Source: Betaproteobacteria bacterium
GTDB taxonomy: Bacteria; Pseudomonadota; Gammaproteobacteria; Burkholderiales; SG8-41
Length of the DNA stretch: 49,120 nt
Reading direction: 5' to 3'
Assembly (NCBI GenBank): GCA_029864385.1
Contig: JAOTTL010000002.1
Coordinates: forward strand, 1 to 49,120
Part shown: positions 10,017 to 46,362 of the stretch, piece after piece
Position numbering within the stretch: position 1 is the first letter of the stretch
How the letters are laid out: every line of letters starts with the position of its first letter
Position numbers and translations under genes: made by a program
The notes under the pieces: generated by a model
The model's input: only the letters and a program-made list of their open reading frames with translations
What the model was told of the DNA's origin: nothing
Database searches by the model: none

Positions 10017-10129
10017 GTTCAATGTTCCGGATTCCGAGTTCAAGGTTCTGGGCTTGACGTTCCACGCGACCCGCCAAGCCATTAGACTACAAACCCGGAA
10101 CTTGGAACGTTGAACCCGGAACTCGGAAC
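10017..10129. repeat. inverted heptad word arrays (5 x GTTCnnn / 5 x nnnGGAA) in the pgk-pyk spacer
   Basis: 10017-10051: GTTCAAT GTTCCGG ATTCCGA GTTCAAG GTTCTGG. 10094-10128: CCCGGAA CTTGGAA CGTTGAA CCCGGAA CTCGGAA. The arms are about 72% complementary, with a 41-nt spacer. Confidence 0.9.
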
Positions 10130-10135
10130 AGGCTG

Positions 10136-11563
10136 ATGCCCCGCCGCACCAAGATCGTCGCCACGCTCGGCCCCGCTTCGAGCGACAAGAAGACGCTTGC
10201 GCGCATGATCGATGCCGGGCTTGATGTCGTGCGCATCAACTTCTCGCACGGCGCCCCCGACGAACATCGCAAGCGCGTCGAGCTGGTGCGCGCGCTGGCG
10301 CGCAGGGCGGGCCGCGCGGTCGGCGTTCTGGTCGATTTGCAGGGCCCGAAGATCCGCATCGGCCGTTTCCGCGACGGCAAGGTGAACCTGAAGATGGGCG
10401 GGACATTCATGCTCGATGCGGAGTGTGAGCTTGGGGATGGGCACCGCGTCGGTCTCGACTACCGCAACCTTCCTAAAGACGTGGACGCCGGCGATACGCT
10501 GCTGCTCGACGATGGGCGCATCGTGCTAGGCGTGGCGTCCGTTCGCGGTTCGCGCATTCACTGTGTGGTGGAGCAGGGCGGTGTCTTGTCCAACAACAAG
10601 GGCATCAACCGTAAGGGTGGCGGCCTGACCGCGCCGGCGCTGACGGAAAAGGATATGCGCGACATCAAGCTGGCGGCTGAGTTGAAAGCCGACTTCCTCG
10701 GCGTGTCCTTCCCGCGCTCGGGGTCGGATATCCGCTGGGCGCGGGATCTTATGCACAAAGCCGGCGGCCGCGCACTGACCGTGGCGAAGATAGAGCGCGC
10801 GGAGGCCATTACGGCGCTGGAGGACATTCTTGACGCCGCAGATTGCATCATGGTGGCGCGCGGGGATCTAGCCGTCGAAGTGGGAGACGCCATAGTGCCT
10901 GCGCTGCAGAAGCGCATGATCCGCTTGGCACGCGAAAAGAACCGGATCACGATCACCGCAACGCAGATGATGGAGTCGATGATCAGCAATCCGATTCCGA
11001 CGCGCGCCGAGGTGTCCGACGTGGCCAATGCCGTCCTGGACGGCACCGACGCGGTGATGCTGTCGGCGGAGACGGCGACCGGCGGCTACCCGGTCGAGAC
11101 GGTGGCCGCAATGGCGCGTGTTTGCGCGGAAGCGGACAAGGAGGACGAGCCGGCCACCGACCGGCGGCGTAACCGGCCACCGGCGAATGTCGAGGAGTCA
11201 ATCGCACGGGCGACGGTTTTCACCTGCAATAACCTGAATATCAAGGCGGTATCGGCCATGACCCAGAGCGGGAACACGGTACTGCTGATGTCGCGAATGT
11301 CCACCAACGTGCCGATCTACGCGATGAGCGCGGGGGTCGAGACGCGACGCCGTGTCACGCTGTTCCGGGGCGTCTACCCGGTTAAGTTCAAAGGCGCTCG
11401 CGATCCCGAAAAGGCGCTTCACATGGCGGAGGATGAGCTCCTCAAGCGTGGCGCCGTGCAGATCGGGGACTACATGGTGCTGACGATCGGCGAGCCTTTC
11501 GGCAAGGTCGGCGGCACCAACACGATGAAGATCGTCCAGGTCGGCGAGCATCGGCGGGCCTAA
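10136..11563 (+). CDS. pyk: pyruvate kinase
   Basis: RRTKIVATLGPAS, IMVARGDLAVEVG, 475 aa. Confidence 0.95.
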   Translation: MPRRTKIVATLGPASSDKKTLARMIDAGLDVVRINFSHGAPDEHRKRVELVRALARRAGRAVGVLVDLQGPKIRIGRFRDGKVNLKMGGTFMLDAECELGDGHRVGLDYRNLPKDVDAGDTLLLDDGRIVLGVASVRGSRIHCVVEQGGVLSNNKGINRKGGGLTAPALTEKDMRDIKLAAELKADFLGVSFPRSGSDIRWARDLMHKAGGRALTVAKIERAEAITALEDILDAADCIMVARGDLAVEVGDAIVPALQKRMIRLAREKNRITITATQMMESMISNPIPTRAEVSDVANAVLDGTDAVMLSAETATGGYPVETVAAMARVCAEADKEDEPATDRRRNRPPANVEESIARATVFTCNNLNIKAVSAMTQSGNTVLLMSRMSTNVPIYAMSAGVETRRRVTLFRGVYPVKFKGARDPEKALHMAEDELLKRGAVQIGDYMVLTIGEPFGKVGGTNTMKIVQVGEHRRA

Positions 11564-11670
11564 TGGCTGTAAATGGTGAAGCGTGAATGGTGAATGATGA
11601 GTCGAAAGGGGTAAAATAAAGGGCTCAGGGTTTGTAGCGTTCTTCACCAGTCACAAGCTACCCGTCACGC
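11562..11670. repeat. inverted heptad arrays (GTGAnnn / nTCACnn) in the pyk-fba spacer
   Basis: 11562-11603: AATGGCT GTAAATG GTGAAGC GTGAATG GTGAATG ATGAGTC, starting in the pyk stop codon. 11643-11670: TTCACCA GTCACAA GCTACCC GTCACGC, the reverse-complement word type. Confidence 0.85.
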
Positions 11671-11687
11671 AATTCCGAGGAGTTCAT

Positions 11688-12722
11688 ATGTCCATTCATC
11701 CATTGGAAGCCGTCGCCCGCGCCATGGTCGCGGGCAGCAAGGGAATACTCGCCGCCGACGAGTCCACCGGCACGATCGAGAAACGCTTCACCGGTATCAA
11801 GGTTGAGAACACAGAAGAGAACAGGCGCGCCTACCGTGACCTTTTGTTCTCGGCCAAAGGCCTCGGGCAATACATCAGTGGCGTGATCCTCTATGACGAG
11901 ACGATCCGCCAGAAATCCGCCGACGGCACGCGGTTTGTCGAGCTGCTTGGCGGGGCCGGGATCATTCCCGGTATTAAGGTGGATACCGGCGCCAAGGACC
12001 TCGCGCAATGCCCGGGAGAGAAAGTCACCGAGGGACTCGACAATCTCGCAAAGCGCTGCGCCGAGTACGTGAAGCTGGGTGCCAAATTTGCCAAGTGGCG
12101 CGCGGTCATCGAGATCGGCACCGACATGCCGAGTTCGACGTGCATCGCGGCGAACGCTCACGCGCTGGGCCGCTACGCCGCAATCTGCCAGGAAGCTGGT
12201 TTGGTGCCGATCGTGGAGCCCGAAGTGCTCATGGATGGCAACCACATCATCCACCGCTGCGAAGAGGTTACGGAGTGGACCTTGAACGCCGTATACGAGG
12301 CGCTCTACGTGCATCGCGTCATTCTGGAACGTTCAGTGCTCAAGCCCTCCATGGTGATTTCCGGCAAGGACTGCCCAGAACAGGCGGAGGTCGCGGAGGT
12401 GGCCGAGCGCACGGTACGCGTTCTCAAGCGGTGCGTGCCGGCCGCGGTCACGGGCATCGTGTTCCTGTCGGGTGGCCAGAGCGATGAGCGGGCGACCCAG
12501 CACCTTAACGCTATGAACAAGATGTACAAGGGTCAGCTGCCATGGCCTTTGTCCTTCTCGTATGGGCGGGCGCTTCAGCAGCCCGCGCTGAAGGGTTGGA
12601 AGGGTTCGAGCGCCAACGTTGCGGCGGCGCAGGCGGCGTTGCTTCACCGTGCGCGGATGAACAGCCTGGCGTGCAGCGGGAGCTATACCGCGGACCTCGA
12701 ACGTCAGGCGCGTGCCGCCTAG
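11688..12722 (+). CDS. fructose-bisphosphate aldolase, class I
   Basis: GILAADESTGTIEKRF and the Schiff-base lysine context VLKPSMVISG. RBS GAGGAG. Confidence 0.9.
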   Translation: MSIHPLEAVARAMVAGSKGILAADESTGTIEKRFTGIKVENTEENRRAYRDLLFSAKGLGQYISGVILYDETIRQKSADGTRFVELLGGAGIIPGIKVDTGAKDLAQCPGEKVTEGLDNLAKRCAEYVKLGAKFAKWRAVIEIGTDMPSSTCIAANAHALGRYAAICQEAGLVPIVEPEVLMDGNHIIHRCEEVTEWTLNAVYEALYVHRVILERSVLKPSMVISGKDCPEQAEVAEVAERTVRVLKRCVPAAVTGIVFLSGGQSDERATQHLNAMNKMYKGQLPWPLSFSYGRALQQPALKGWKGSSANVAAAQAALLHRARMNSLACSGSYTADLERQARAA

Positions 12723-12737
12723 GCTGGCGGTTTTGTT
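12715..12737 (+). terminator. weak terminator candidate after the aldolase gene
   Basis: CCGCC (12715-12719) / GGCGG (12726-12730), 6-nt loop containing the stop codon, then TTTTGTT. Confidence 0.35.
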
Positions 12738-12761
12738 GCAGGCTCCCCGCCGCGCGACGAT

Positions 12762-17440: not shown

Positions 17441-17458
17441 TAGCCGCAGATAAGCGCC
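17441..17458 (-). repeat. copy of the GCGTTTATCTGCGGCY motif (reverse strand)
   Basis: The plus strand reads TAGCCGCAGATAAGCGCC, whose reverse complement is GGCGCTTATCTGCGGCTA. Confidence 0.8.
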
Positions 17459-17534
17459 GATTAGATCAATAAGTGGTTAGAGGGTGAGCTGGCAGGCTTG
17501 CGCGAAATCGTTTCCAGTCCAGGGAGGGTGTGAA

Positions 17535-18331: not shown

Positions 18332-19309
18332 TCAGGGAGCGACGGGCGTCGGCGGCGGCAAAACCGCGCCCTTCTCACCGGCGACGCGGCGTAGAACGTC
18401 GGGACGGTCGCTGATGATGCCGTCGACTCCCCAGTCGATGAGGCGCCGCATGTCGGCGGGCTCGTTCACCGTCCATACCACGACTTTTAAACCGAACGCG
18501 TGTGCTTCCTTGACCGCTTCGCGCGTGAGATCGCCGCTATACGGCGACCACACGGCCCCTCCCGCCGCCTTGACCATCCGGGGAATGGCCCCCTCGAACT
18601 GACTTACATGTAAGCCAGCCGTCCAAGGTGAGGATGGACGGCTGGCTTGAATGTTGTCCATGAAGTCGCTGACCGTCGTGAGATAAACGGTCGCGATTTC
18701 CGGCGCGTCCGCCTGCACGACGGCGAGCGTGCGCCAGTCGAACGACTGGATAGCCGTGCGATCGGCCATTCCGGCCGCCCGCACGGCTGAAATGAGTACA
18801 CGGGCAAAGACCTCTGGGGCGACCGTCTCATCCGGCGCCAACGGGGATGTCTTCGTCTCGATGTTGAAGCGCACCGTGTCGTTGGCGGCCTTGCGCACGA
18901 GATTAAACACGTCTGATAGTCGCGGGATGCGTGCACCGTCGACCGCCTGCTGCTCCGGCCAGCGCTTCGCGTAGGCGCTCGCCGGGTTGATGCGGCCTAC
19001 GTCGTAGCGCTGCAGTTCTTCGTAAGTGAGGTCACGAATACGGGGACCGGGGTTCGTCAGCCAGTTCCCGTCTGGCCCGCGAGTCAGGTCCGGGTTCAGG
19101 ACGGAGTCGTGACCGATTACGGCCACGCCGTCCTTTGTGACCGCGCAATCCATCTCGAGCGTGGTGACGCCGATCGAGAGCGCGCGGGCGAAGGCCGCCA
19201 GCGTGTTCTCGGGTGCGAGCCCGCGCGCGCCACGGTGGCCCTGCAAATCAAGCGCGTATGTGCCAGTGGCGGCCATGGTGAATGCTGCACAAATTATCGC
19301 GAAGCGCAT
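18332..19309 (-). CDS. glycerophosphodiester phosphodiesterase family protein, secreted
   Basis: Start at internal Met (MRFAIICAAFTMAATGTYA signal peptide), then DLQGHRGARGLAPENT and WGVDGIISDRPD. The upstream 58 codons of ORF 18332..19483 run through a tandem repeat and are rejected. Confidence 0.85.
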   Translation of the reverse strand: MRFAIICAAFTMAATGTYALDLQGHRGARGLAPENTLAAFARALSIGVTTLEMDCAVTKDGVAVIGHDSVLNPDLTRGPDGNWLTNPGPRIRDLTYEELQRYDVGRINPASAYAKRWPEQQAVDGARIPRLSDVFNLVRKAANDTVRFNIETKTSPLAPDETVAPEVFARVLISAVRAAGMADRTAIQSFDWRTLAVVQADAPEIATVYLTTVSDFMDNIQASRPSSPWTAGLHVSQFEGAIPRMVKAAGGAVWSPYSGDLTREAVKEAHAFGLKVVVWTVNEPADMRRLIDWGVDGIISDRPDVLRRVAGEKGAVLPPPTPVAP

Positions 19310-19330
19310 GCCCGATGGGTCGAGGGAGCC

Positions 19331-19418
19331 CGTGAAGTTGGGAGATCGGGAGATGGAAAACCGGGAGATCGTGAGATCGGAAAATCGTGAGATCGGGAAA
19401 TCGGGAGATGGAAAAAAC
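19331..19418. repeat. ~11 units of a degenerate 8-nt repeat (GGGAGATC / GTGAGATC / GGAAAATC) upstream of the GDPD gene
   Basis: CGTGAAGT TGGGAGAT CGGGAGAT GGAAAAC CGGGAGAT CGTGAGAT CGGAAAAT CGTGAGAT CGGGAAAT CGGGAGAT GGAAAAAAC. Confidence 0.9.
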
Positions 19419-19463
19419 GCAGTCTCCCTCTCACGCTCTGACGCGCTCCCGTTCTCACGGATC

Positions 19464-20150
19464 TTATCCGCCGCCGGGCGCAAGCCCTGTCATCCGCCAT
19501 CCACCTTCGGTCTTGACGAAGCAGGCGGCGTGCTCGATCGGGCTGCGGATCTGTTCTTCCGGAACATAACCCTCGCCGTTCCTTACCTTGACTTTGACCC
19601 AGCGCTGCTTCACGTCCGCGGCCTTATCGGTGACCTCCCAGTCGGAGATCGTGACGATGTCGTAGGAGAGCACCTGCACCGTCGCCGACCTCGACGACGG
19701 CCCCGCTTTTACCAGGACCTCGCGCGCGACCGCCGCGCCGTGCTGGAACGGATCCACGTCCTGCGGCCACTTCGCGAGCAGGTACGGTGCGCAGAGCTCG
19801 CGGCGGCCATTTTCACGCTCGAGGTACGCGGAACCGAGAAAGAGCGCGGAGCGCAGCGCGTGCCACAGGGGACCCTTCTCGGCATCGACTTCCCATCGCT
19901 TTCTGAATTCCGCGGCGCCGCGGGGCGCTTCGAGGCCGGTGCGCACGTCCTGCGCGAGGATCCCCATCACGTGTTTACGGTCGCGCACCTCCGCGGCGTT
20001 GAGCAGCCGGTTACGGAAGCTGACCCAGGACGGGTCGCGCGCGGCCTCGTCCACGGGCTCGAGCCGGCCCTCCTGACCGAGCGCGGGCGCCGGGGGCGGG
20101 CCAACCAGCATGGCCACCAGAACGAAGGGCAGCGCGATTTTTGCGGTCAT
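19464..20150 (-). CDS. hypothetical secreted protein with SH3-like C-terminal region
   Basis: Signal peptide MTAKIALPFVLVAMLVG. ATGA overlap with the upstream enoyl-CoA hydratase gene. No recognisable catalytic motif. Confidence 0.6.
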   Translation of the reverse strand: MTAKIALPFVLVAMLVGPPPAPALGQEGRLEPVDEAARDPSWVSFRNRLLNAAEVRDRKHVMGILAQDVRTGLEAPRGAAEFRKRWEVDAEKGPLWHALRSALFLGSAYLERENGRRELCAPYLLAKWPQDVDPFQHGAAVAREVLVKAGPSSRSATVQVLSYDIVTISDWEVTDKAADVKQRWVKVKVRNGEGYVPEEQIRSPIEHAACFVKTEGGWRMTGLAPGGG

Positions 20151-21344: not shown

Positions 21345-21371
21345 TAGCCGCGTTTATCTGCGGCTAAATCG
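21345..21371 (+). repeat. copy of the GCGTTTATCTGCGGCY motif, here a 7-bp hairpin TAGCCGC gtttatct GCGGCTA
   Basis: TAGCCGCGTTTATCTGCGGCTAAATCG. It overlaps the GntR stop codon (21354-21356). Confidence 0.85.
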
Positions 21372-22154: not shown

Positions 22155-22183
22155 GCAGGGGACGATACTGGCCGCTTGTAATA

Positions 22184-22205
22184 TTGTCAACAATATTATT
22201 GACAA
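22184..22205. promoter_or_regulatory. near-palindromic AT-rich operator candidate in the GntR / Mo-enzyme divergent region
   Basis: TTGTCAACAATATTATTGACAA has 20 of 22 positions dyad-symmetric and contains GT..AC-type half sites typical of GntR-family operators. It lies 30-50 nt upstream of the regulator start. Confidence 0.55.
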
Positions 22206-22381
22206 CAATAAGGGCTATGCCTACCATGACCTTCCCCGCGCCGCCTTGCGCAGCCTCGCGTTTCCAATCCCATGAGCTCGATGCCCGAGATCAAGGAAAT
22301 TCATCGACGCGTTACAGCCGCGGTTGAGAATGCAGCTGGGGCCGAAGTACAAGGCGGGCGTCCGGCCTTAGGTTCAAGAGC

Positions 22382-22416
22382 GTGATGGGTGACGAGTGAC
22401 TGGTGAGGCGTGAGCA
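22382..22416. repeat. 5 heptads GTGATGG GTGACGA GTGACTG GTGAGGC GTGAGCA just upstream of the Mo-enzyme RBS
   Basis: Read directly; 7-nt period. Confidence 0.9.
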
Positions 22417-22434: not shown

Positions 22435-23679
22435 ATGCCAAAGCGGGAAATCGAAGGCGATTGGGTTCTCGGCTGGCCGGACCGGAAACGACCGGCGATC
22501 ATACCGGGCAAGGATGCCGAAGGCCGCGTGATCAATGGCCGTGCGCCGGTGACTGAGCTCGCCGGCTTGATCACCCCGAATGAGGCGTACTACATCGTCA
22601 ATCAACTCGAGGCGCCGGATGCGGTGCATCCGGACGACTGGAAGCTCTCGATCAAGGGTGAGGTCGAGCGCCCGTTCGAGCTCGATTTCGAAAGCCTCAT
22701 GAAACTGCCTGGCCGCAGCGTGCGTGGGGTGACCGAATGTGCTGGCAACGACGCCGGCTTCTTCGACTATCTGCGCAAAGGCGCGAAGAAGCCCTCGCGC
22801 GTCAACCAGCAAGACATGCAGAAGCGCGCCGAGCAACGCGTGAAGGGCGAGCTCCCGTCCAGCGAGGAAATCAGCTCCGAGTCGACGACAACGTGCGCGG
22901 TGAGCGCGGGCGAGTTCACGGGCGTGCCCCTCGTGGAGGTGCTCAAGCGTGCCGGCATGAAGCCGGGTGCCGTCTGCGTGCGCGCGCAGGGATTCGATAC
23001 CGGTCATCCGGACACGGCGGTGATCTATCGCTCGGTGGGGACTCGAGATTTCGAGATTCCGGATCCCGGCGTGATCCACTACGAGAAGGCGCTGCCGCTC
23101 GAGAAAGCGCTCGATCCGGACACGATCCTTGCCTGGGCGCAGAACGGCGAATACTTGTGGCATGTACACGGATCGCCCGTGCGTCTCATCGTGCCGGGAT
23201 GGTCGGGCAACTGGTGGGTGAAGTGGGTCGAGGAGCTCGAAGTGATGAGCACCATGCCCACGCCCTTCTACCAGAGGGAGTACTTCGTTTACGGGGAATC
23301 GGCGCAGGATCCGGAAAAGCCACCGCTGATGGCCATGGGGGTGCGCAATATCATCACTGAGCCGCTCGACGAGGACTCACCGCTTCCGCGCGGCTCCCAC
23401 ATGATTCGCGGGCGTGCCTGGAGCGGAAAGGGTGCGATCACGCGCGTGGAGGTGAGCTTCGACGAGGGCAAGACCTGGACCGACGCTCATCTGGAGGAGC
23501 CGCGCGAGCGGTGGTTGTGGCGGCGCTGGTCATTTCTGTGGGAGGTAGACAAGCCCGGCCAGTACAAGATCATGGCCCGGGCCACTGACGAGACCGGCCG
23601 CGTCCAGCCGCAGACCCCGTGGAATTTCCAGCGCAAGCACTTCGATTGGATCGTGCCCACTGAGATCACTATCGTTTAG
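22435..23679 (+). CDS. sulfite-oxidase-fold molybdopterin oxidoreductase (no signal peptide)
   Basis: Mo-ligand cysteine motif VTECAGN, oxidoreductase molybdopterin-binding domain plus C-terminal Mo-co dimerisation-like domain (ITRVEVSFDEGKTW). RBS AGGGAGGG. No Tat or Sec signal. Confidence 0.85.
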   Translation: MPKREIEGDWVLGWPDRKRPAIIPGKDAEGRVINGRAPVTELAGLITPNEAYYIVNQLEAPDAVHPDDWKLSIKGEVERPFELDFESLMKLPGRSVRGVTECAGNDAGFFDYLRKGAKKPSRVNQQDMQKRAEQRVKGELPSSEEISSESTTTCAVSAGEFTGVPLVEVLKRAGMKPGAVCVRAQGFDTGHPDTAVIYRSVGTRDFEIPDPGVIHYEKALPLEKALDPDTILAWAQNGEYLWHVHGSPVRLIVPGWSGNWWVKWVEELEVMSTMPTPFYQREYFVYGESAQDPEKPPLMAMGVRNIITEPLDEDSPLPRGSHMIRGRAWSGKGAITRVEVSFDEGKTWTDAHLEEPRERWLWRRWSFLWEVDKPGQYKIMARATDETGRVQPQTPWNFQRKHFDWIVPTEITIV

Positions 23680-23768
23680 TGATGAGTGATGAGTGATGAG
23701 TGATGAGTGACGAGTGACGAGTGACGAGTGACGAGTGACCAGCGACCAGTTACCAGTGACGAGTGAGT
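23678..23768. repeat. 13 tandem heptads: 4 x AGTGATG, 4 x AGTGACG, then AGTGACC AGCGACC AGTTACC AGTGACG AGTGAGT
   Basis: Starts inside the Mo-enzyme stop codon (TAG 23677-23679). The complementary words AGCCACC CGTCACC CATCACG lie at 23894-23914, just before etfB. Confidence 0.95.
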
Positions 23769-23929
23769 GGTGCGCAGAAGTCATCTCATTAATCCCCTCT
23801 CCCCGCTGCCGCGGGACGAGGAGTATTGTTGAGACAAGCCCTGGCGACCCGTCAGCGGTGGCCTGTGAATCGAAGCGCCCCGCGCGGTTTGCGAGCCACC
23901 CGTCACCCATCACGCCGTTAGGTCTTGAG

Positions 23930-25726: not shown

Positions 25727-25811
25727 GCCGCAGATACACGCAGATAGAAACAGATATTCTGGCTCCAGACGCACAATCGGGAGTTGGTTTCATGGGCGTT
25801 TATCTGCGGCC
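25727..25811. repeat. 3 x 10-nt array (GCCGCAGATA CACGCAGATA GAAACAGATA) facing an inverted GCGTTTATCTGCGGCC motif
   Basis: Left arm 25727-25756, right arm 25796-25811, in the etfA-CT2 spacer. Confidence 0.9.
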
Positions 25812-27372: not shown

Positions 27373-27468
27373 AGTGATGATAGAGGGTGATGAGAAATGG
27401 TGATGAAAAATGGTGATGAGAAAGCCGCACCGCCGACTTAACGGTTGGCCATCACCAGTACTCGTCAC
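27373..27468. repeat. 4 x 13-nt array (AGTGATGATAGAG GGTGATGAGAAAT GGTGATGAAAAAT GGTGATGAGAAAG) plus inverted arm CCATCACCAGTACTCGTCAC
   Basis: Left arm 27373-27424, right arm 27449-27468, in the CT2-BC spacer. Confidence 0.9.
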
Positions 27469-28922: not shown

Positions 28923-29080
28923 GCCACGGAAACACACGGAAGCACACGGAATGAAAATCAAAGCGATGAAGGTTACTTTCGGATTGAGCGGTGGTTGCTA
29001 TTGCTCGTTCTTCCGTGTATTTCCGTGTGATTCCGTGGCCAATGTCTTTGATCTGATGAATCTATTTTTATTCCGTGGCT
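28923..29080. repeat. 29-nt CACGGAA-word element in inverted pair, plus an extra TTCCGTGGCT
   Basis: 28923-28951 GCCACGGAAACACACGGAAGCACACGGAA versus the reverse complement of 29012-29040 GCCACGGAATCACACGGAAATACACGGAA (26 of 29 match), 60-nt spacer. Extra TTCCGTGGCT at 29071-29080. Confidence 0.9.
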
Positions 29081-29103
29081 ACCCTATTCCGAGAGGATTC
29101 TGA

Positions 29104-29814
29104 ATGGACTCGCGGGACCTGATCGTTGAAGCACGCAAGCGGGGGCGGGCGACGCTCGATGAGCAAGCCGGGAAGTGGCTGCTCGCCGCCTACGGCGTCG
29201 CCGTTCCTGCGTCGGTGATCGTGCCGGGCGCTGCGGGGGCCGCTGCAGCGTTCGAGTGCCTCAAGCCGCCGGTGGTGGTCAAGGTCATGTCTCCCGACAT
29301 CCTGCACAAGAGCGAAGCGCGCGCGGTACGGCTCAACGTGGCATCCGCTGTGGAACTGGCGGCGGCATGCGAGGAGATTCTTGCGAACGCGCGCGCTTAC
29401 AAAAACAATGCCCGAATCGACGGGTTCCTGGTGGAGGAGATGGCGCCGGCTGGCCAGGAGATGGTGATCGGCGGCCTGCGCGATCCGCAGTTCGGCCCCC
29501 TCGTCATGGTGGGGCTGGGCGGAATTTTCGTCGAGGTGCTGGCGGATGTCGCTTTCCGCATCTGCCCGATTGAGCGGCGCGACGCCGAGGAAATGCTGGA
29601 CGAGTTGAAGGGCGCGGCAATTCTCAAAGGCGCGCGCGGCAGAAAGCCGGTCTCGCGCGAGGCGATCGTCGAGACGTTGCTCCGGATCGGTGGCGAGCGG
29701 GGGCTTCTCATGGATCACGCGGCCGACATCAAGGAGGCGGACATCAACCCCCTCATCGTTTCCGAACGCGGGGCGGTCGCGGTGGACGCCCGCTTCGTGC
29801 TTTCGAAAGAGTGA
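29104..29814 (+). CDS. ADP-forming acyl-CoA synthetase, beta (ATP-grasp) subunit
   Basis: ATP-grasp pattern VVVKVMSPDILHKSEARAVRLNV..VEEM..GQEMVIGG..DPQFGP..MVGLGGIFVEVL and INPLIV tail. RBS GAGAGGA. Confidence 0.85.
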   Translation: MDSRDLIVEARKRGRATLDEQAGKWLLAAYGVAVPASVIVPGAAGAAAAFECLKPPVVVKVMSPDILHKSEARAVRLNVASAVELAAACEEILANARAYKNNARIDGFLVEEMAPAGQEMVIGGLRDPQFGPLVMVGLGGIFVEVLADVAFRICPIERRDAEEMLDELKGAAILKGARGRKPVSREAIVETLLRIGGERGLLMDHAADIKEADINPLIVSERGAVAVDARFVLSKE

Positions 29815-29943
29815 TGAGTACTGGTGATGAGAGATGGTGATGGGAGATGGTGATGAGAAGCTTTCTCCAACCTGCACCGATGCGAGCGGTTTTCCATCAC
29901 CAGTTTCCATCACCATTAATCATCACCATTAATCATCACCATC
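29811..29943. repeat. inverted 13-nt word arrays between the acyl-CoA synthetase beta and alpha genes
   Basis: Left 29811-29860: GTGATGAGTACTG GTGATGAGAGATG GTGATGGGAGATG GTGATGAGAAG. Right 29894-29943: CCATCACCAGTTT CCATCACCATTAAT CATCACCATTAAT CATCACCATC. 33-nt spacer. Confidence 0.95.
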
Positions 29944-31446: not shown

Positions 31447-31536
31447 ACCACGGAATCAAACGGAAATACACGGACAATGACCTGAACCGGGAGGCGCGCC
31501 GTAGGCGATCCACAATTTCAGTGTGCTTCCGTGGCT
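31447..31536. repeat. third copy of the CACGGAA-word element plus an inverted GCTTCCGTGGCT
   Basis: 31447-31476 ACCACGGAATCAAACGGAAATACACGGACA (27 of 29 identical to the reverse complement of 29012-29040); 31525-31536 GCTTCCGTGGCT. Confidence 0.85.
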
Positions 31537-35674: not shown

Positions 35675-35696
35675 GTCGATTTCCTACATTAACTTC

Positions 35697-35901
35697 CGTG
35701 AATCGTGAGTCGTAAATCGACGATATCTTGGCGCGCTTGGCGTCTTGGCGGTTCAGTTCTGGTTCTTATCGGCGTGTATCGGCGTCCATCGGCGGCGAAA
35801 AAAACCGTAAATCGTGAATCGAATCTTTGTTCCTCCTCTGTGTTCTCTGTGCTCTCTGTGGCCAATTGCTTTTGACTTTATCCGCGTTCATCTGCGGCTC
35901 A
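35697..35901. repeat. composite modular repeat element, copy A
   Basis: Blocks in order: CGTGAAT-type heptads 35697-35724; TCTTGGCGCGCTTGGCGTCTTGGCGGTTCAG 35726-35756; TATCGGCG x3 35767-35797; heptads 35806-35826; CTCTGTG x3 (9-nt) 35835-35863; GCGTTCATCTGCGGCT 35884-35899. Confidence 0.9.
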
Positions 35902-36780
35902 TTTCCGCTTTGCCATGGTGGACGGATTAAGCGACCGGGGATCGCGCGGCCGCCAACGCCCCGAGTCCACGAGGGACAGGAATTCATCCGTGATGCCGTG
36001 GAAGAGATCCGGCTCCTCGACGTTGACCGCGTGGCCAGTCGCGGGCACGACCGTCAGGCGTGCCGCGGGGCAGACGCGCTTGATGAAGATCGCGGGATCC
36101 AGGCAGTTGTTGTCCTCGTCACCCGTGATGATGTGGGTCGGCACCTTCATCCGCCGCAGTGACCGCTCCAGGCTGTAGAGCGTCGGGCGGCGCGCCTGGA
36201 CACCGCGCAGGGTGTTCGCCGAGCCGAGCGCCGAGTGCGTGGCGAACATCATGCAGAATTCGCGGAAACTCCGCGGGTCCTTGTTCTGCAGCTGCACCCG
36301 GGCCGGCCCGATCTGGTAGACCTTGATGGCTTGTGGCGTGCCAAGCTCGTCGAAGCGACGCGCCATCACCTCGGTGTCGCGCTGGAATTGGTGGCGTTTG
36401 TCCGGGTCTGATCCATAGCCGACGCCAATCGACGTGACTGAGCGCGCCATGTGGGGGTAGCGCAGCCCGAAGTGGAGCGCCGCAAAACCCCCCATCGAGC
36501 AGCCGATGACGTGCGCCTTGCGGATCTTCAGATGCCGCAGCACGTTGGCGATATCGTCGGTCGCGATCGCCTGTGAGTATTGGGAACCCGCCTTCGGCAC
36601 TTCCGAGGGCGGATAGCCGCGCGCGTTGAACACGATGCAGCGATAACGGCGGCTAAAGTAGCGGATCTGCGGCTCCCAGCCGCGCATATCGTGGGCGAAC
36701 TCGTGCACAAAGATGAGGGGTGTGCCGCGGCCCGCTTCTTCGTAGTAAAGCCTCACCCCGTTGGAATCAGCAAAAGGCAT
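35899..36780 (-). CDS. alpha/beta-fold hydrolase (paralog 1)
   Basis: Nucleophile elbow GCSMGG and HEF..D oxyanion region. ATG 36780 is preceded by GGAG. C-terminal tail WRPRDPRSLNPSTMAKRK is shared with paralog 2. Confidence 0.85.
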   Translation of the reverse strand: MPFADSNGVRLYYEEAGRGTPLIFVHEFAHDMRGWEPQIRYFSRRYRCIVFNARGYPPSEVPKAGSQYSQAIATDDIANVLRHLKIRKAHVIGCSMGGFAALHFGLRYPHMARSVTSIGVGYGSDPDKRHQFQRDTEVMARRFDELGTPQAIKVYQIGPARVQLQNKDPRSFREFCMMFATHSALGSANTLRGVQARRPTLYSLERSLRRMKVPTHIITGDEDNNCLDPAIFIKRVCPAARLTVVPATGHAVNVEEPDLFHGITDEFLSLVDSGRWRPRDPRSLNPSTMAKRK

Positions 36781-36800
36781 CACTTACTCCGTTATAGATG

Positions 36801-36990
36801 TGTGAGTCGTGAATCGTAAAAGGTGAATCGTGTTTCTCTCTTTTTGGCGCGCATGGCGCGCATGGCGCCGTGGCGGTTCAGTCCGGAAACTTATCGGCGT
36901 TCATCGGCGGCGAATCAGATCTGTTCGGGGTTCGAAGTTCTGGGTTCTCTATTTCTTTGTATGTATTGATCCGCGTTTATCTGCGGCTCA
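36801..36990. repeat. composite modular repeat element, copy B
   Basis: Heptads TGTGAGT CGTGAAT CGTAAAA GGTGAAT 36801-36832; TGGCGCGCA x2 ..TGGCGGTTCAG 36845-36881; TTATCGGCGTTCATCGGCGGCG 36891-36912; GTTCGGG GTTCGAA GTTCTGG GTTCTCT 36923-36950; GCGTTTATCTGCGGCT 36973-36988. Confidence 0.9.
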
Positions 36991-37869
36991 ATTCCGCTTT
37001 GCCATGGTGGACGGATTAAGCGAACGCGGATCGCGCGGCCGCCAGCGCCCCGAGTCCACGAGCGCGAGGAACTCGTCGGTGATGCGGTTGAAGAAATCCG
37101 GCTCCTCGGCATTCACCACGTGACCGCTGGCAGAGACCACGGTGAGGCGCGCAGCAGGACACATGCGCTTGACAAAGAGGCCGGGGGCGAGCGCGCCTTC
37201 GTCTTCGTCGCCGACCACGATGTGAGTCGGTACGTTCATGCGGCGCAGCCCGGCCTCGAGCTGATAGATGCTGGGCCGCCGTGCCTGCAGCCCGCGCAGC
37301 GTATTGGCGTGGCCGGCAGCCGAGCCCTGCGCAAACTTCGTCCAGAAATCACGGTAGCCGCGCGGGTCCTTGTTCTGCATCTGCACCCGGTTGGGCGCGA
37401 GCTGGTAGACCTTCTTCGCCGCCAGAATGCCGCGCTCTTCGAACAACCGCGCCATCGCTTCGTTGTTGCGCAGAAACTCCTTGCGCTTCGCGGGGTCGGA
37501 ACCCGACCCGGCGCCGACCGCGGTGAGCGAGAGCGCCATTTTCGGATAGCGTATGCCGAAATGCAGCGTTGCCGCCGCGCCCATGGAGCAGCCGATGATG
37601 TGGGCCTTGCGCACGCCCAGGTGTCGCATCACGTTGGCGATGTCGCCGGTTGCGATGTTCTGGGAATAGCCGGCGGGCGTCCGCGGCACGTTTGAGGGCG
37701 GGTAGCCGCGCGCGTTGTAGGCGATGCAGCGGTAGCGCCGGCTGAAGTGCCGCAGTTGCGGCTCCCAGCTGCGCATGTCGCCGGAAAATTCGTGCACGAA
37801 CACGATCGGCGTGCCGCGTCCCGCTTCTTCGTAGTAAAGCTTTACGCCATTGGAATCAGCATAGGGCAT
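36988..37869 (-). CDS. alpha/beta-fold hydrolase (paralog 2)
   Basis: GCSMGA nucleophile elbow. Roughly two-thirds identical to paralog 1 by eye, with a near-identical last ~30 aa. Confidence 0.85.
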   Translation of the reverse strand: MPYADSNGVKLYYEEAGRGTPIVFVHEFSGDMRSWEPQLRHFSRRYRCIAYNARGYPPSNVPRTPAGYSQNIATGDIANVMRHLGVRKAHIIGCSMGAAATLHFGIRYPKMALSLTAVGAGSGSDPAKRKEFLRNNEAMARLFEERGILAAKKVYQLAPNRVQMQNKDPRGYRDFWTKFAQGSAAGHANTLRGLQARRPSIYQLEAGLRRMNVPTHIVVGDEDEGALAPGLFVKRMCPAARLTVVSASGHVVNAEEPDFFNRITDEFLALVDSGRWRPRDPRSLNPSTMAKRN

Positions 37870-37888
37870 CGTTCTCTTCCTTCAAAAG

Positions 37889-38025
37889 CGTGAATCGTGA
37901 ATGGTGAATCGTCTTTCCTTCATCTTGGCGTGCTTGGCGTTATGGCGGTTCAGTTTAATCCAGGTTCTCTCGGCGTCTCGGCGGTTCCCCCGTTGAATAA
38001 TCTGTGTGTATCTGTGGCTAAATCG
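37889..38025. repeat. composite modular repeat element, copy C
   Basis: CGTGAAT CGTGAAT GGTGAAT 37889-37912; TCTTGGCGTGCTTGGCGTTATGGCGGTTCAG 37923-37953; TCTCGGCGTCTCGGCGGTT 37967-37985; AATCTGTGTGTATCTGTGGCTAAATCG 37999-38025. Confidence 0.9.
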
Positions 38026-40970: not shown

Positions 40971-41017
40971 AACTCATCCTTGTGCAAATGGTCGCTCGAC
41001 CCTTTGCACCACACACC

Positions 41018-41056
41018 TTCCCTCTCCTTCCGGGAGAGGGGCGGGGGTGAGGGTAA
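41018..41056. repeat. GC-rich REP-like palindrome between the two ACAD genes
   Basis: CCCTCTCC ttccg GGAGAGGG followed by GCGGGGGTGAGGGTAA. This resembles the widespread proteobacterial CCCTCTCC..GGAGAGGG..GGGTGAGGG extragenic element. Confidence 0.6.
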
Positions 41057-43295: not shown

Positions 43296-45039
<1,744 letters not shown>

Positions 45040-45050
45040 CCATTGACGAA

Positions 45051-45230
45051 GTGATGAGTAATGGTTATGAAATACTGGTGATGAAATACTGGTGATGACA
45101 ACTGGTGATGTACACGAATTTCCTTGTTACTTTTCTTTATCACCACCTCTCATCACCATTTCTCGTCACCCTCTTTCATCACTTCGTCACCCGTCACCCG
45201 TCACGCGTCATTTCATCCCCTCATCACGCG
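45051..45230. repeat. convergent-gene spacer made of inverted GTGATGA / TCATCAC word arrays
   Basis: Left 45051-45116: GTGATGAGTAATG GTTATGAAATACTG GTGATGAAATACTG GTGATGACAACTG GTGATGTACACG. Right 45138-45230: TATCACC..CATCACC..CGTCACC..CATCAC..CGTCACC CGTCACC CGTCACG..TCATCACG. Confidence 0.95.
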
Positions 45231-45247
45231 GTGAGCAGTTGCGATCA

Positions 45248-46138
45248 TCAGCGCACCGCGCGCAAGCGCTCGGGGACGTCATAGCGTTCCTCGAGCTTCT
45301 GGATCTCCGGCAATCCCGCGATGTCCGTGAAGTCCTTGAAGCTCGCGACCTTGTCGCGCAGGTGGGCAACGGTGCCGGAGCGCTTGAGCTCACGCAGGAG
45401 GTTTTCCATGGCAGGAATCGCCGCAAGGATTACCCAGTTCGGGAAGATCACGAGGCGGAATCCGAGCCGGCCCAGCTCTTCCACGGGCAGGTCAAGCGTC
45501 TTGCAGTTTGCCGCCGTGTTGTAGAGAAGCGGGACACCTTTGAAGCGGCGCGCGATGCGCTCGACGTCGGTGCGTCCGACCGGCGCCTCGATGAAGAGCA
45601 TATCCGCACCCGCTTCGCGGTAGCGCATGCCGCGCTCGAGCGCCGCGTCGAGCCCCTCCACGGCGATCGCGTCGGTGCGCGTGATGATGAGGAAATCCGG
45701 GTCGTGGCGCGCGTCGCATGCGGCCTTGATCTTCGCCACCATGTCGGCCGTCGCGATGACGCGCTTGCCTGAAAAATGGCCGCAGCGCTTGGGCCAGTCC
45801 TGGTCCTCGATGTGCACGCCGGCAACGCCCGCTTTCTCGTAGTCACGGATGGTGCGCCAGGTGTTGACCGGGTTGCCGTAGCCGGTATCGGCGTCGGCGA
45901 TGACGGGAAGCCCCGACGAGTCGACGATGCGCCCCGCGTTGTCCACCATCTCGGAAGCCGTGAGGAGCCCGACGTCAGGCATGCCAAGGCGCGTGAGGCT
46001 CGTGCCGAACCCGCTCATGTACACGGCTTCGAATCCTTCGCGGGCGACAAGCCTTGCAGCGAGGGCGTCGGCAACGCCGGGCGCAATAGTGCAGACGGGA
46101 CGCACGATCAACTCGCGCATACGGGAGGTCGGTCTCAT
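45248..46138 (-). CDS. isocitrate lyase / PEP mutase family enzyme (methylisocitrate-lyase or oxaloacetate-decarboxylase-like)
   Basis: IADADTGYG and EDQDWPKRCGH (the K[KR]CGH signature); 296 aa. Confidence 0.85.
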   Translation of the reverse strand: MRPTSRMRELIVRPVCTIAPGVADALAARLVAREGFEAVYMSGFGTSLTRLGMPDVGLLTASEMVDNAGRIVDSSGLPVIADADTGYGNPVNTWRTIRDYEKAGVAGVHIEDQDWPKRCGHFSGKRVIATADMVAKIKAACDARHDPDFLIITRTDAIAVEGLDAALERGMRYREAGADMLFIEAPVGRTDVERIARRFKGVPLLYNTAANCKTLDLPVEELGRLGFRLVIFPNWVILAAIPAMENLLRELKRSGTVAHLRDKVASFKDFTDIAGLPEIQKLEERYDVPERLRAVR

Positions 46139-46152
46139 GGCGGAGTGCCTCC

Positions 46153-46180
46153 GTGGGGTGGGAAGGGTGGGGTGGGAAGG
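46153..46180. repeat. 2 x 14-nt direct repeat GTGGGGTGGGAAGG
   Basis: Read directly, just upstream (minus sense) of the PEP-mutase-family gene start. Confidence 0.85.
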
Positions 46181-46256
46181 AATATTATAGGCGCCTTGCC
46201 GCCCGCCTTCACTACGGGTGAAGAAGCGATAACTGACGAGAGCTTGATACGGCGTA

Positions 46257-46284
46257 ACTCGTGGCGGGTGACTCGTGACTCGTC
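46257..46284. repeat. 4 heptads AACTCGT GGCGGGT GACTCGT GACTCGT
   Basis: Read directly. Confidence 0.85.
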
Positions 46285-46346
46285 GCGCGATGCGCGGTCT
46301 TCCCGGTTCACGACAGACGTTTCACGAATTTTGTCTGTTTGTATAT

Positions 46347-46362
46347 GGGTTTATCTGCGGCC
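46347..46362 (+). repeat. copy of the GCGTTTATCTGCGGCY motif (GGGTTTATCTGCGGCC)
   Basis: Preceded by TGTCTGTTTGTATAT, similar to the TCTGTG block of the composite element. Confidence 0.8.

Follow-up and report, generated by a model that had tools for sequence, protein, structure and literature searches.

Long simple-sequence repeats with units of 5-11 nt, among which heptamers dominate, were described by Mrazek (2007) and, in the accounts of that survey given in PMC4679880 and PMC4692102, are enriched between the genes of large, high-GC genomes, for example those of Burkholderia and Xanthomonas. Polymerase slippage has been proposed as the cause of heptamer repeats in other bacteria, as stated in PMC4679880 (citing Mrazek 2007). 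The GGGAATC arrays of Xanthomonas form convergent inverted pairs beside stop codons, vary in length between species, and are for the most part transcribed (PMC4692102); the STRR heptamers of cyanobacteria are a further example of this class.

We analysed a stretch of 49,120 nt (hereafter the window) from an uncultured soil/sediment betaproteobacterium, in which about half of the longer intergenic gaps hold fast-changing arrays of 7-14-base words, mostly as mirror-image array pairs able to form long hairpins. These arrays resemble those of Xanthomonas in polarity, inverted pairing, adjacency to stop codons, and length variation between species (PMC4692102). The original prediction assigned them to no named repeat family. 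They were indeed rejected as REP, ERIC, CRISPR, or classical MITE sequences, but a described class does exist in the heptamer-dominated long simple-sequence repeats.

Arrays are concentrated between genes

Arrays were defined with TRF as repeats of period 5-30 with at least 2.5 copies. By this definition they cover 827 of the 4418 intergenic nt of the window (18.7%), but only 171 of its 44702 coding nt (0.38%). Of the 34 spacers that measure 30 nt or more, 13 carried an array, whereas 100 dinucleotide shuffles averaged 0.81 such spacers and never exceeded 2; array-covered bases numbered 809, compared with 27 +/- 22 in the shuffles. In an independent autocorrelation test of the 29 spacers of 40 nt or longer, 14 were significant at p<0.02, where 0.6 would be expected, and four more fell at p=0.027-0.043. 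The enrichment of tandem-word arrays in spacers is real and far above chance, and the dominant period is 7, as in other bacteria. The original prediction had counted at least 18 array-bearing spacers, which is roughly right (14-18 of 29 by autocorrelation), and arrays were found at essentially every position that it listed, from 10017 through 46256. Its statement that almost all intergenic DNA is built in this way was overstated, since about 11 spacers gave no array signal and about 80% of the intergenic bases of the window lie outside TRF-detectable arrays. Two finer points held: the unit drifts gradually along arrays, as at 23678-23772 (Table 1), and arrays touch or overlap stop codons and reach up to start codons.

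Inverted array pairs form long hairpins

What the earlier reading missed was the main organization: most arrays are the two arms of inverted pairs, which form long hairpins (Table 1). A module is a short tandem array of a word of 7-8 nt, usually in 3-6 units but in as many as 13; successive words either adjoin (period 7) or have 1-6 unconstrained linker bases between them (periods 8-10 and 13-14). Typically, both members of an inverted array pair share a spacer, and on either strand the purine-rich member lies 5' of the loop. The long stem, foldable as RNA or single-stranded DNA, is made of 7-9-bp helices broken by small internal loops, and the hairpin folds in the window are bulged, with z of -3 to -8. 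Among 163 related sequences we found 74 inverted array pairs, nearly all with the purine-rich arm first. The arrays of the three abhydrolase spacers are serial and unpaired, show less structure than shuffles do (Table 1), and are unexplained by a hairpin model.

Table 1. Array-bearing features of the window and what was observed at each. Positions are those of the window; z values compare folds with shuffles.
Position	Strand	Feature	Array organization	Further observations
10017-10129	+	pgk->pyk spacer, inverted array pair/hairpin	GTTCnnn x7 (10017-10065) vs nnnGAAC x5 (10095-10129)	RNA fold -51.4 kcal/mol, z -3.3; autocorrelation p=0.017
11572-11670	+	pyk->fba spacer	GTGAAnn x4 (11572-11601), TCAC-type partner arm (11643-11670)	autocorrelation p=0.003
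17443-17461	+	copy of dispersed 19-mer GCCGCAGATAAnCGCnGAT	two CGCnGAT words, period 10	
19340-19463	-	spacer between two minus-strand genes	GGGAGATC/CGTGAGATC x9 (19340-19411) vs CTCTCACG-type x4 (19424-19463)	p=0.013; outside genes per L081 gene calls
21346-21364	-	GCCGCAGATAAACGCGGCT word-pair copy		directly after GntR stop codon; small hairpin
22380-22414	+	between stop codon of deleted-gene remnant and Mo-oxidoreductase gene RBS	GTGAnnn x5	L001: (GACGACA)x5 + (AAAAGTG)x9.4 instead
23678-23772	+	longest array; begins within Mo-oxidoreductase gene stop codon	AGTGATG x4, AGTGACG x5, degenerate units	weak partner arm CCGTCACCCATCACGCC at 23900-23916; other GTGA/TCAC words in L001 and L003 orthologues; copy number polymorphic inside the population
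25727-25810	+	ETFa->carboxyltransferase spacer	GCCGCAGATAcaCGCAGATAgaAACAGATA (25727-25756) vs inverted copy TTTATCTGCGGC (25792-25810)	p=0.003
27373-27468	+	GGTGATG/13 hairpin	(nnnnnGGTGATGA)x4 vs CCATCACC..CGTCAC	L001 and L003 orthologues: 3-4 right-arm units
28867-28910	+	CGTGAAT array	CGTGAAT x6	TGA stop codon of biotin carboxylase gene lies in unit 1
28923-29039	+	C[AG]C-family hairpin	GC(CACGGAAnnn)x3, 59-nt loop, (nnnTTCCGTG)x3GC	different modules in this spacer of L001 and L003
29810-29943	+	GGTGATG/13 hairpin filling the ATP-grasp_5 -> CoA-binding subunit-gene junction	5' arm overlaps stop codon	RNA fold -70.3 kcal/mol, z -8.0; junction 2-20 nt in relatives without arrays
31448-31535	+	CACGGAAnnn array	CACGGAAnnn x3 with single TTCCGTGGC partner	autocorrelation p=0.027
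35697-35898	-	serial unpaired modules, abhydrolase-1 / NMO gene	(+ strand reading) CGTGAAT x3, CTTGGCG x3, ATCGGCG x3, CGTAAATCGTGAATCG, CTCTGTG x3 + GGCCAATTGCTTTTGAC, ATCCGCGTTCATCTGCGGC	less structured than shuffles, z +2.8; individual modules 93-100% identical to other-species modules
36801-36987	-	paralogous copy of the 35697 module series, abhydrolase-2 / abhydrolase-1		z +0.15
37889-38017	-	third copy of the 35697 module series, EamA gene / abhydrolase-2		z +3.7
43865-43892	+	divergent spacer, just upstream of probable M20 peptidase start (43907)	nAGTCAC x4, pyrimidine-type arm only	p=0.010
45050-45210	.	convergent spacer, M20 stop / PEP-mutase stop	(GGTGATGAnnnnnn)x4-5 vs (ATCACCAnnnnnn)x3 + (CGTCACC)x4	GTGA-type arm follows own stop codon for each flanking gene; RNA fold -72.2 kcal/mol, z -6.5; seen again in Logan contigs L165 and L166
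46256-46361	-	array, words, and 19-nt copy	ACTCGTG/GTGACTC array (46256-46285), TTCACGA words, GCCGCAGATAAAC copy (46343-46361)	

The modules draw on a small common vocabulary of dispersed elements and are not independent local words. The words fall into a small number of families: GGTGATG (period 13 nt), heptamers of the form GTGAnnn, and C[AG]CNNNN words (period 8-10 nt). These families recur from spacer to spacer and between related uncultured Burkholderiales MAGs. GTGATGA is present in five spacers, CGTGAAT is 67-fold enriched, and the 19-mer GCCGCAGATAAnCGCnGAT has eight copies in the window at no more than 3 mismatches, where none is expected; a relative with 78% amino-acid identity has one 30-nt module in 100% identical form. 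Across the eight copies of the GGTGATG/13 type the words are invariant and the linkers variable, and two further copies lie just beyond the window. Words and inter-arm complementarity are conserved, whereas linkers and loops drift. The arms co-vary: free word positions are complementary between arms at 88-100% in 26 pairs, 94.9% of cells are paired, and the covariation score was 0.36 compared with 0.149 in shuffles, none of 500 of which reached 0.36. Such complementarity could come from copying by template switching, without selection. Sense and antisense strands did not differ in how well they folded (27 vs 25 of 52 pairs, Wilcoxon p=0.66; G-U pairs, 189 vs 161), and thus the sense transcript is not singled out as the selected molecule.

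One word family raises G-quadruplex formation, as proposed for the GGGNATC arrays of Xanthomonas and Nostoc, since the GGGAGATC array is closely similar to GGGAATC and has several GGG tracts (PMC4692102). However, all other families (GTGATGA, CGTGAAT, CACGGAA, CACAGAG, CGCCAAG, CGCAGAT, and GTTCnnn) are devoid of G-tracts of at least 3, and we regard this explanation as very improbable.

Arrays turn over faster than the flanking genes

The arrays change size by replication slippage of whole units. Over 20.7 kb, the only difference between the window and a contig from the same population (L081) is one heptamer unit, a 7-nt indel in the array at 23678-23772, indicating that slippage is active and giving a length polymorphism between two assemblies of one population. 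Array turnover also far outpaces that of the flanking genes: the orthologous spacers of L001 (93-95% nucleotide identity) and L003 carry other units or even other word families, and a perfect AAAAGTG array stands in L001 where the window has degenerate GTGAnnn. The trait is limited to part of the clade. At operon junctions, spacers have a median length of 2-10 nt where arrays are absent and of 102-166 nt where they are present, and arrays occur in 86 of the 107 spacers that reach 100 nt versus 2 of the 234 shorter than 20 nt. The arrays have widened stop-start junctions of 2-10 nt, as seen in array-free relatives, to spacers of 100-170 nt.

One Logan contig (L082) ends inside arrays at both sides, and assemblers struggle there. 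However, the arrays were reproduced in ENA assembly ERZ27296398 and in Logan contigs of SRR7132224 and SRR7134473, and MAGs of unrelated studies carry arrays in their orthologous spacers. Their presence in independent assemblies and sequencing runs rules out an assembly artefact, and the chance of an assembly or binning artefact is next to nil.

One could also envisage the arrays as a mutational by-product, in which frequent polymerase slippage in this lineage, on units of 7-10 nt, leads to neutral accumulation wherever coding constraint is lacking, with neither function nor mobility. This would agree with the unit-level indel polymorphism, the young, perfect arrays of L001, the way in which identical variant units cluster in blocks within arrays, the dominance of period 7, as where slippage was proposed according to PMC4679880 (citing Mrazek 2007), the occurrence of the trait in only part of the clade, and the operon junctions of relatives, which function without arrays. 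Random slippage does not predict that numerous spacers, and species with only ~77-80% protein identity, would share words, nor does it predict invariant words beside free linkers, complementary arrays with covarying words in the same spacer, or a uniform purine-first polarity. We consider a pure by-product rather unlikely.

Possible mobility and transcription termination

The termini TTAGCC(word x3)...(word' x3)GGCTAA are extended and conserved, as are the outer flanks, and may end in TA. Such features are consistent with tandem words offering several sites to which a transposase, or some other sequence-specific DNA-binding protein, would bind. The inverted pairs would then be non-autonomous elements inserting at stop-start junctions, akin to transposon-end subterminal repeats, REP/RAYT systems, and Correia-type MITEs. 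Modules of 93-100% identity in both orientations at non-orthologous sites, solitary arms (77 left and 111 right, with only 26 pairs), and presence, absence, or replacement at one junction among near relatives point the same way. In contrast, neither loops nor internal sequence are conserved between copies, even inside one genome (L014). No unambiguous target-site duplication or mobilising enzyme was identified for the modules, and Pfam revealed no transposase gene in the 49-kb window or its flanks. Moreover, the many word families would each need their own cognate protein, and arm complementarity across families is better explained by a constraint on structure than by a single binding specificity. 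Mobility by protein recognition appears an unlikely explanation.

The modules lie directly behind stop codons, in convergent as well as co-directional spacers, and have very stable stems, as would suit bidirectional transcription terminators of the lineage whose A-rich and U-rich tracts are spread over arms and flanks. A-rich sequence comes first and T-rich second on both strands, and A- or T-runs flank about one third of the pairs, especially in the CACAGAG family: upstream, A-runs were seen at 19 of 53 pairs and T-runs at 1 of 53; downstream, T-runs at 16 of 53 and A-runs at 8 of 53. Unconventional terminators made of hairpin clusters, proposed elsewhere, provide a precedent (PMC8355165). 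However, many hairpins reside within operons that are tight and probably translationally coupled in relatives, even between the two subunits of one enzyme, and efficient termination there would be harmful. In addition, a scan for canonical terminators gave no enrichment (17 sites, 16.1 expected), most hairpins in the window have no T-run adjoining the stem, and unpaired arrays exist. We judge a terminator function to be quite improbable. Rfam gave no match for the arrays, in keeping with the earlier view that they are non-coding and that gene, promoter, and canonical terminator models fail to account for them.

Discussion

We lean, with confidence only a little above even, towards the arrays being lineage-specific, REP/BIME-like, slippage-driven tandem-repeat hairpin modules that colonise the stop-start junctions of an uncultured Burkholderiales clade. 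The A- and T-runs at the flanks of the pairs also fit this reading. The modules would behave like REP/BIME elements, as tolerated or mildly useful transcript stem-loops right behind stop codons. We infer a role as stem-loops or attenuators in the transcript: they may block 3' exonucleases and/or serve as partial attenuators, poor in U-tracts, by which adjacent cistrons are uncoupled. Within the genome, the modules would spread and be renewed by copying, through ectopic conversion or template switching, together with slippage, and their origin may be selfish or neutral. The purine-first order may perhaps be kept because it leaves A-rich sequence with many stops behind the upstream gene, and T-rich sequence free of start codons ahead of the downstream start. 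The arrays of the window are best read as a lineage-specific version of a kind of repeat known from Xanthomonas, Burkholderia, and cyanobacteria.

Gene content and relatives of the window

The window has a GC content of 64% and ordinary gene content, which Pfam resolved into rsmB, ntrYX and a tkt-gap-pgk-pyk-fba block, a long acyl-CoA/carboxylase/ETF cluster and, on the minus strand, a block of hydrolases, enoyl-CoA hydratase, acyl-CoA dehydrogenases, TctC and DctM. Its relatives were, without exception, MAGs of uncultured Betaproteobacteria/Burkholderiales, the nearest being MAG_442_bin-18 (locus L001; 93-95% nucleotide identity) and SG8_41 (locus L003; 80-85%). Two sources represented the population of the window itself: one ENA contig of 173.5 kb, ERZ27296398:k141_669057, and Logan contigs of the runs SRR7132224 and SRR7134473. 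The population-level polymorphism reported here is based on that one ENA contig and three short Logan contigs. A scan of JGI metagenomes returned no near-identical strain, with 89% as the best match. When window positions 22260-22385 were compared with L001 880-2445, a carboxyltransferase gene of about 1.5 kb that is intact in L001 was found to retain only its first and last few dozen bases in the window; a short AATTC microhomology marks the site of the deletion, and a small remnant ORF ends at the original stop codon. The 177-aa ORF at 43296-43829 matches the C-terminal half only of a D-2-hydroxyacid dehydrogenase NAD-binding domain (profile positions 82-177 of 178) and is probably a truncated gene fragment.

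Tandem word arrays are concentrated in intergenic DNA

According to the original prediction, almost all intergenic DNA of the window is built of short tandem word arrays. TRF (period 5-30, at least 2.5 copies) recovered nearly all of the predicted arrays, and direct reading added the remainder, including those at 25727 and 43865. On the curated gene map, TRF arrays covered 827 of 4418 intergenic nucleotides (18.7%) and 171 of 44702 coding nucleotides (0.38%). An array was present in 13 of the 34 spacers of at least 30 nt; in 100 shuffles that preserved dinucleotides, the count averaged 0.81 and never exceeded 2. By autocorrelation over three units, p<0.02 was reached in 14 of the 29 spacers that measure 40 nt or more, where 0.6 would be expected, and p was 0.027-0.043 in another four. 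Measured against both shuffled and coding DNA, the arrays are therefore longer than chance and enriched in intergenic sequence. The words "almost all" proved too strong, given that about 11 spacers of the window, including those at 5659, 15279, 33241, 33756, 38951 and 48734, gave no array signal. What survives of the claim concerns the long spacers: at the operon junctions compared between relatives, arrays were present in 86 of the 107 spacers that are 100 nt or longer and in only 2 of 234 spacers shorter than 20 nt, and long spacers in these operons are therefore essentially arrays in this clade.

The arrays are no assembly artefact: they are reproduced by independent assemblies, and orthologous spacers of other MAGs also bear arrays. 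Across 160 loci the commonest period was 7; the coding/non-coding split for these loci was left out, because the automatic GC3-based mask makes too many coding calls where stop-to-stop ORFs run into arrays. The distribution was patchy, with at least one array in about 45 of the first 80 related MAG loci, none in 36, and a density of at least 5 array bases per kb in about 20. L001, L003, L044, L024 and L014 belong to the array-rich relatives, and L007, L009 and L012 to those free of arrays. We conclude that the arrays are real, highly non-random and lineage-specific.

Three other repeats were noted. At 41016-41053, between two acyl-CoA dehydrogenase genes, lies a classical-looking palindromic repeat, CCTTCCCTCTCC..GGGAGAGGGGCGGGGGTGAGGG, unlike the arrays, and similar CCCTCTCCC/GGGAGAGGG/GGGTGAGGG elements occur in spacers or hairpin loops of the related loci L013, L078, L102, L124 and L133. 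A perfect 14-nt direct repeat, (GTGGGGTGGGAAGG)x2, at 46153-46180 is directly upstream of the start of a PEP-mutase/isocitrate-lyase-family gene, as read on the opposite strand, and, unlike the other arrays, is rich in G-tracts. At the start of a GntR-family gene, 22162-22227 holds a TATTGACAACAATAT x1.9 dyad with two divergent TTGACA-type promoter-like matches, likely an autoregulatory operator/promoter unrelated to the arrays.

Most arrays are arms of inverted pairs

The main anatomy of the arrays was absent from the original description: most of them have an inverted partner array in the spacer where they lie, as listed in the table.

Array-bearing spacers of the window, with the repeat units of each arm
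Position	5' arm	3' arm	Arrangement
10017-10129	GTTCnnn x7	nnnGAAC x5	inverted pair
19340-19463	GGGAGATC-type	CTCTCACG-type	inverted pair
25727-25810	GCCGCAGATA..	..TATCTGCGGC	inverted pair
27373-27468	GGTGATGA	CATCACC	inverted pair
28923-29039	CACGGAAnnn x3	nnnTTCCGTG x3	inverted pair
29810-29943	GGTGATGA	CATCACC	inverted pair
35675-35898			unpaired; abhydrolase spacer
36784-36987			unpaired; abhydrolase spacer
37870-38017			unpaired; abhydrolase spacer
45050-45210	GGTGATGA	CATCACC	inverted pair

The paired spacers were predicted to fold into long stems of 7-9-bp helices separated by small internal loops, with fold energies of -70.3 kcal/mol at 29810-29943 (z -8.0), -72.2 kcal/mol at 45050-45210 (z -6.5) and -51.4 kcal/mol at 10017-10129 (z -3.3). 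The window and 162 related loci together yielded 74 inverted array pairs, in which the purine-rich arm was nearly always 5' of the loop. This purine-first polarity was identical on both strands, which is the "convergent" layout of the Xanthomonas GGGAATC pairs; the purine-type arm adjoins stop codons and the pyrimidine-type arm start codons in either gene orientation. Because the polarity is strand-symmetric, we rejected a tie to the direction of transcription, and for the same reason it is uninformative on which strand matters. Neither folding nor the number of G-U pairs differed between sense and antisense over 52 pairs.

The unpaired arrays of the three abhydrolase spacers form a fixed series of different arrays, and these spacers folded less than shuffled sequence. 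Two tandem abhydrolase paralogues (35899-37869; about 75% nucleotide identity) were duplicated along with their array-filled spacers, and the three spacers are therefore not independent occurrences.

A shared vocabulary of words and covariation of the arms

Identical 7-mers were found in up to 5-6 spacers of the window and were enriched 10- to 67-fold over coding DNA. The 19-mer GCCGCAGATAAACGCGGAT, which consists of two CGCnGAT words at a period of 10, occurred in 8 copies where 0 were expected, and several copies immediately follow a stop codon. The window contains three hairpins built from GGTGATG at a 13-nt period (GGTGATG/13), and two more lie just past its end. Modules of about 30 nt were 93-100% identical, in either orientation, between species that share only about 75-80% protein identity. 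Ten loci defined the layout of the CACAGAG element: from 5' to 3', an A-rich flank leads into (T)TAGCC(ACAGAGnnC)x3, a loop of 25-115 nt with unrelated sequence comes next, and (nnCTCTGTG)x3GGCTAA follows, with a T-run after it. The CACGGAA hairpin of the window has the same kind of ends (AGC.../...GGC(C/T)AA), and the shared ends make CACAGAG, CACGGAA, CGCCAAG, CGCCGAT and CGCAGAT look like one superfamily, C[AG]CNNNN.

A pattern search with four positions left free gave 26 unique pairs; at the free word positions, the arms were complementary in 88-100% of these pairs. In the outermost words, 94.9% of cells were paired and 4 of 9 pairs contained double changes, whereas slid controls paired at 32-53%. 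The covariation score was 0.36 against 0.149 in shuffles and was reached by 0 of 500 shuffles; the pseudo-alignment from which it was calculated contains outermost words only, and since the search pattern fixed part of each arm, weight can be placed on the variable positions alone. RNAalifold applied to eight GGTGATG/13 copies gave no informative covariation, because the words are invariant. Only the C[AG]C superfamily, compared as a whole, showed covariation. The words are invariant while linkers and loops vary, a pattern that either a pairing constraint or concerted copying would produce.

Arrays change by whole units and expand tight junctions

Over 20.7 kb (19097-39814), the window and the ERZ27296398 contig differ solely by one AGTGATG unit (4 versus 3 copies); elsewhere, five substitutions lie outside a patch at 48000-49000, and some 48 kb outside this patch differ at six sites. 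The length polymorphism expected of such arrays was thus observed, as a one-unit indel within the population and as differences in copy number in L001 and L003. The patch at 48000-49000, which covers the DctM N-terminus and its upstream spacer, holds 106 of 114 mismatches and 9 of 9 indels relative to ERZ27296398:k141_669057 and looks recombined or strain-mixed.

Between relatives the words themselves are replaced. L001 carries (GACGACA)x5 and (AAAAGTG)x9.4 where the window has a degenerate GTGAnnn x5, GTGAACG x3 ... TCACGGA x5 where the window has AGTGATG/AGTGACG, and a mosaic of CGCAGAT, GAACCGCC, CGCCAAG and ATTCACG where the window has CGTGAAT and CACGGAA/TTCCGTG. Depending on the species, the junction between the ATP-grasp_5 gene (AG5) and the CoA-binding gene (CoA) is occupied by GTGATGA/13, GTGACGA/13, CGTGAAT, CACAGAG, CGCCGAT, ACAGGATT or nothing. 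The array-free junctions are tight (for example ...GTGATGAGC...): median lengths for biotin carboxylase to AG5, AG5 to CoA and CoA to ADH were 10, 2 and 3 nt without arrays and 166, 150 and 102 nt with them. In the related locus L063, the AG5-CoA junction holds a short AGTGACG x4 array that runs from the upstream TGA stop into the downstream GTG start; it may be an incipient array, grown in place from a tight stop-start junction. The arrays thus gain or lose whole units by slippage, turn over rapidly and expand tight junctions, and they combine conserved words and complementary arms with the potential to form hairpins.

Comparison with known repeat systems

The closest known system is the GGGAATC arrays of Xanthomonas. 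These and the Nostoc GGGGA(C/T)T heptamer arrays are strongly enriched in non-coding DNA near ordinary metabolic genes, and their function is unknown (Rehm et al. 2015; PMC4692102). In Xanthomonas there are 70-75 convergent inverted pairs. Gene context is kept between species while length and sequence are highly variable, and most of the Xanthomonas arrays are transcribed (PMC4692102). The present arrays share with them position, polarity, inverted pairing and variation in length between species; the convergent pairs lie beside stop codons at conserved positions, and the window's GGGAGATC array has nearly the same word. Unlike the single G-rich word of Xanthomonas and Nostoc, however, several families are present here, mostly without G-tracts. 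A quadruplex needs at least four tracts of at least three G; GGG is confined to the array at 19340-19411, and with most families lacking G-tracts, G4 formation cannot be a common property. Also unlike Xanthomonas, many arrays have unconstrained linkers and a period of 8-10 or 13-14, serial mosaics of different modules occur in some spacers, and the vocabulary, with covarying arms, is common to many species of an uncultured clade.

Long SSRs with 5-11-nt units are, as summarised in PMC4679880 and PMC4692102, most commonly heptamers, characteristic of large high-GC genomes that are not host-adapted, including Burkholderiales, and polymorphic in copy number, with polymerase slippage as the proposed cause (Mrazek, Guo & Shah 2007). 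Short-repeat satellites are also known in Burkholderia (PMC6749651). The arrays described here consist of head-to-tail units of 5-11 nt, are predominantly heptameric and enriched in non-coding DNA, and show slippage instability. They are best filed with the long, mainly heptameric SSRs that large high-GC genomes such as Burkholderia and Xanthomonas carry, a known kind that is functionally unexplained. In those summaries the class is defined by tandem repetition alone; inverted pairing, arm covariation, a cross-species vocabulary and junction expansion are features of the arrays studied here. The cyanobacterial STRR heptamers and the TAACTGA repeats of Beggiatoaceae are likewise intergenic, near gene ends or starts and phylogenetically sporadic, with proposed post-transcriptional roles and unknown function (PMC4679880). 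TAACTGA arrays consist of a single word, nearly always direct (one inverted case), just upstream of start codons (PMC4679880), unlike the many words found here, mostly as inverted pairs that span the whole spacer.

CRISPR arrays (24-48-nt repeats with unique spacers of similar length) were rejected, as the periods here are 7-14 nt without unique spacers. A functional analogy is offered by the REP/BIME/REPIN elements of enterobacteria and pseudomonads, short extragenic repeats that lie after stop codons within and between operons, vary between strains and occur as singles, hairpin-forming inverted doublets or motif mosaics, with roles in mRNA 3'-end protection and attenuation. The present arrays are also dispersed in many extragenic copies after stops, as singles, inverted doublets or mosaics. 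The REP unit, however, is a 20-40-nt imperfect palindrome with a GTAG/CGTC-type tag that is mobilised by RAYT, a Y1 transposase, whereas the unit of the present arrays, a tandemly repeated word of 7-8 nt, is not palindromic and has no tag; only the inverted pair is palindromic. No RAYT gene was found in the 49-kb window or in about 7 kb of flanking sequence. Correia/NEMIS-type MITEs of Neisseria form hairpins, are co-transcribed with their neighbours, and have a conserved interior and a clear TA target duplication. The modules resemble them in size (100-170 bp), terminal inverted repeats of about 26-30 nt, of the form TTAGCC(word x3)...(word' x3)GGCTAA, and TA ends. Unlike Correia elements, they have termini of tandem words and loops that are unrelated between copies, differing in length (25-115 nt) and sequence even within the single related locus L014. 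The TA at both ends of the modules is palindromic and hence indistinguishable from part of the inverted repeat. A permissive Rfam search of the whole window gave a lone chance miRNA-like match on the hairpin at 29813-29940, and a search of the literature returned no description of these particular elements.

Possible functions

The position after stop codons, the stability of the predicted folds, the A-rich and T-rich flanks and the transcribed Xanthomonas precedent point, indirectly, to an RNA role. The modules would be REP/BIME-like transcript stem-loops that might block 3' exonucleases or act as leaky attenuators between cistrons; alternatively, they might persist simply as tolerated selfish DNA. 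The purine-first orientation may be a filter, in that it would leave stop-rich and A-rich sequence after the upstream gene and G-poor, start-codon-free sequence before the next start.

Several observations speak against a simple terminator role. A canonical scan for intrinsic terminators (GC-rich stem plus U-tract) found 17 sites against 16.1 expected, none at array hairpins; T-runs lie within 20 nt of the stem in 16 of 53 pairs, usually 5-10 nt away, and most copies in the window have none. The hairpins also occur inside operons, even between two subunits of one enzyme, and their folding lacks sense/antisense asymmetry. A canonical promoter scan gave no enrichment, and the spread over unrelated metabolic junctions argues against a regulon of response-regulator or Fur-type operators. 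Selection for stop codons in all frames suits the GTGA/TGA words, but the T-free CACAGAG, CGCCAAG and CACGGAA contain no stops. CsrA-type GGA sites are suggested by CACGGAAG, which fits CANGGANG, yet pairing within the hairpin occupies these sites, and GGA is missing from most families. The words are almost absent from coding DNA, unlike DUS/USS, which speaks against an uptake-sequence analogy. In a phase-variable contingency locus, expression of a surface or virulence gene is switched by the copy number of an SSR in its ORF or promoter spacer. The present arrays do not fit this definition, since the genes whose stop and start codons flank them serve central metabolism and CoA metabolism.

Nothing yet shows a new mechanism at these arrays. 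We regard as unlikely, but would name, the idea that dedicated machinery recognises or copies the words kept identical across species (GGTGATG, CACAGAG, CACGGAA, CGCCAAG, CGCCGAT, CGCAGAT and others), which would make them a new class of mobile non-coding element with tandem-word termini that targets stop-start junctions. That machinery could be a transposase/RAYT-like enzyme or a protein that binds the hairpins or the words; an uptake-type bias would be another candidate.

Implications

The arrays could serve as strain-resolving VNTR markers for MAG populations, and they also break short-read assemblies: both ends of the Logan contig matching window 28883-29937 (L082) fall within arrays, CGTGAAT at its start and CATCACC at its end, from which it follows that short-read assemblers break at these repeats. 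Stop-codon-free arrays can mislead the calling of start codons. The longest ORFs of ETF-beta, the M20 peptidase and GDPD reach upstream into arrays, over 23735-23929, 43828-43906 and 19277-19483, whereas by homology and the gene calls of the pipeline the real starts are near 23930, 43907 and 19276, respectively.

If our description holds, a widespread uncultured Burkholderiales clade has turned many 2-10-nt junctions into structured spacers of 100-170 nt, employing a small conserved vocabulary of tandem words. Why heptamer-type repeats occur between genes is a question that has stayed open for Xanthomonas, Burkholderia and cyanobacteria alike, and the clade would be an unusually clean natural experiment for answering it. 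The same junction can be followed through dozens of species, array-free or with different word families, and what the repeats do thereby becomes directly testable.
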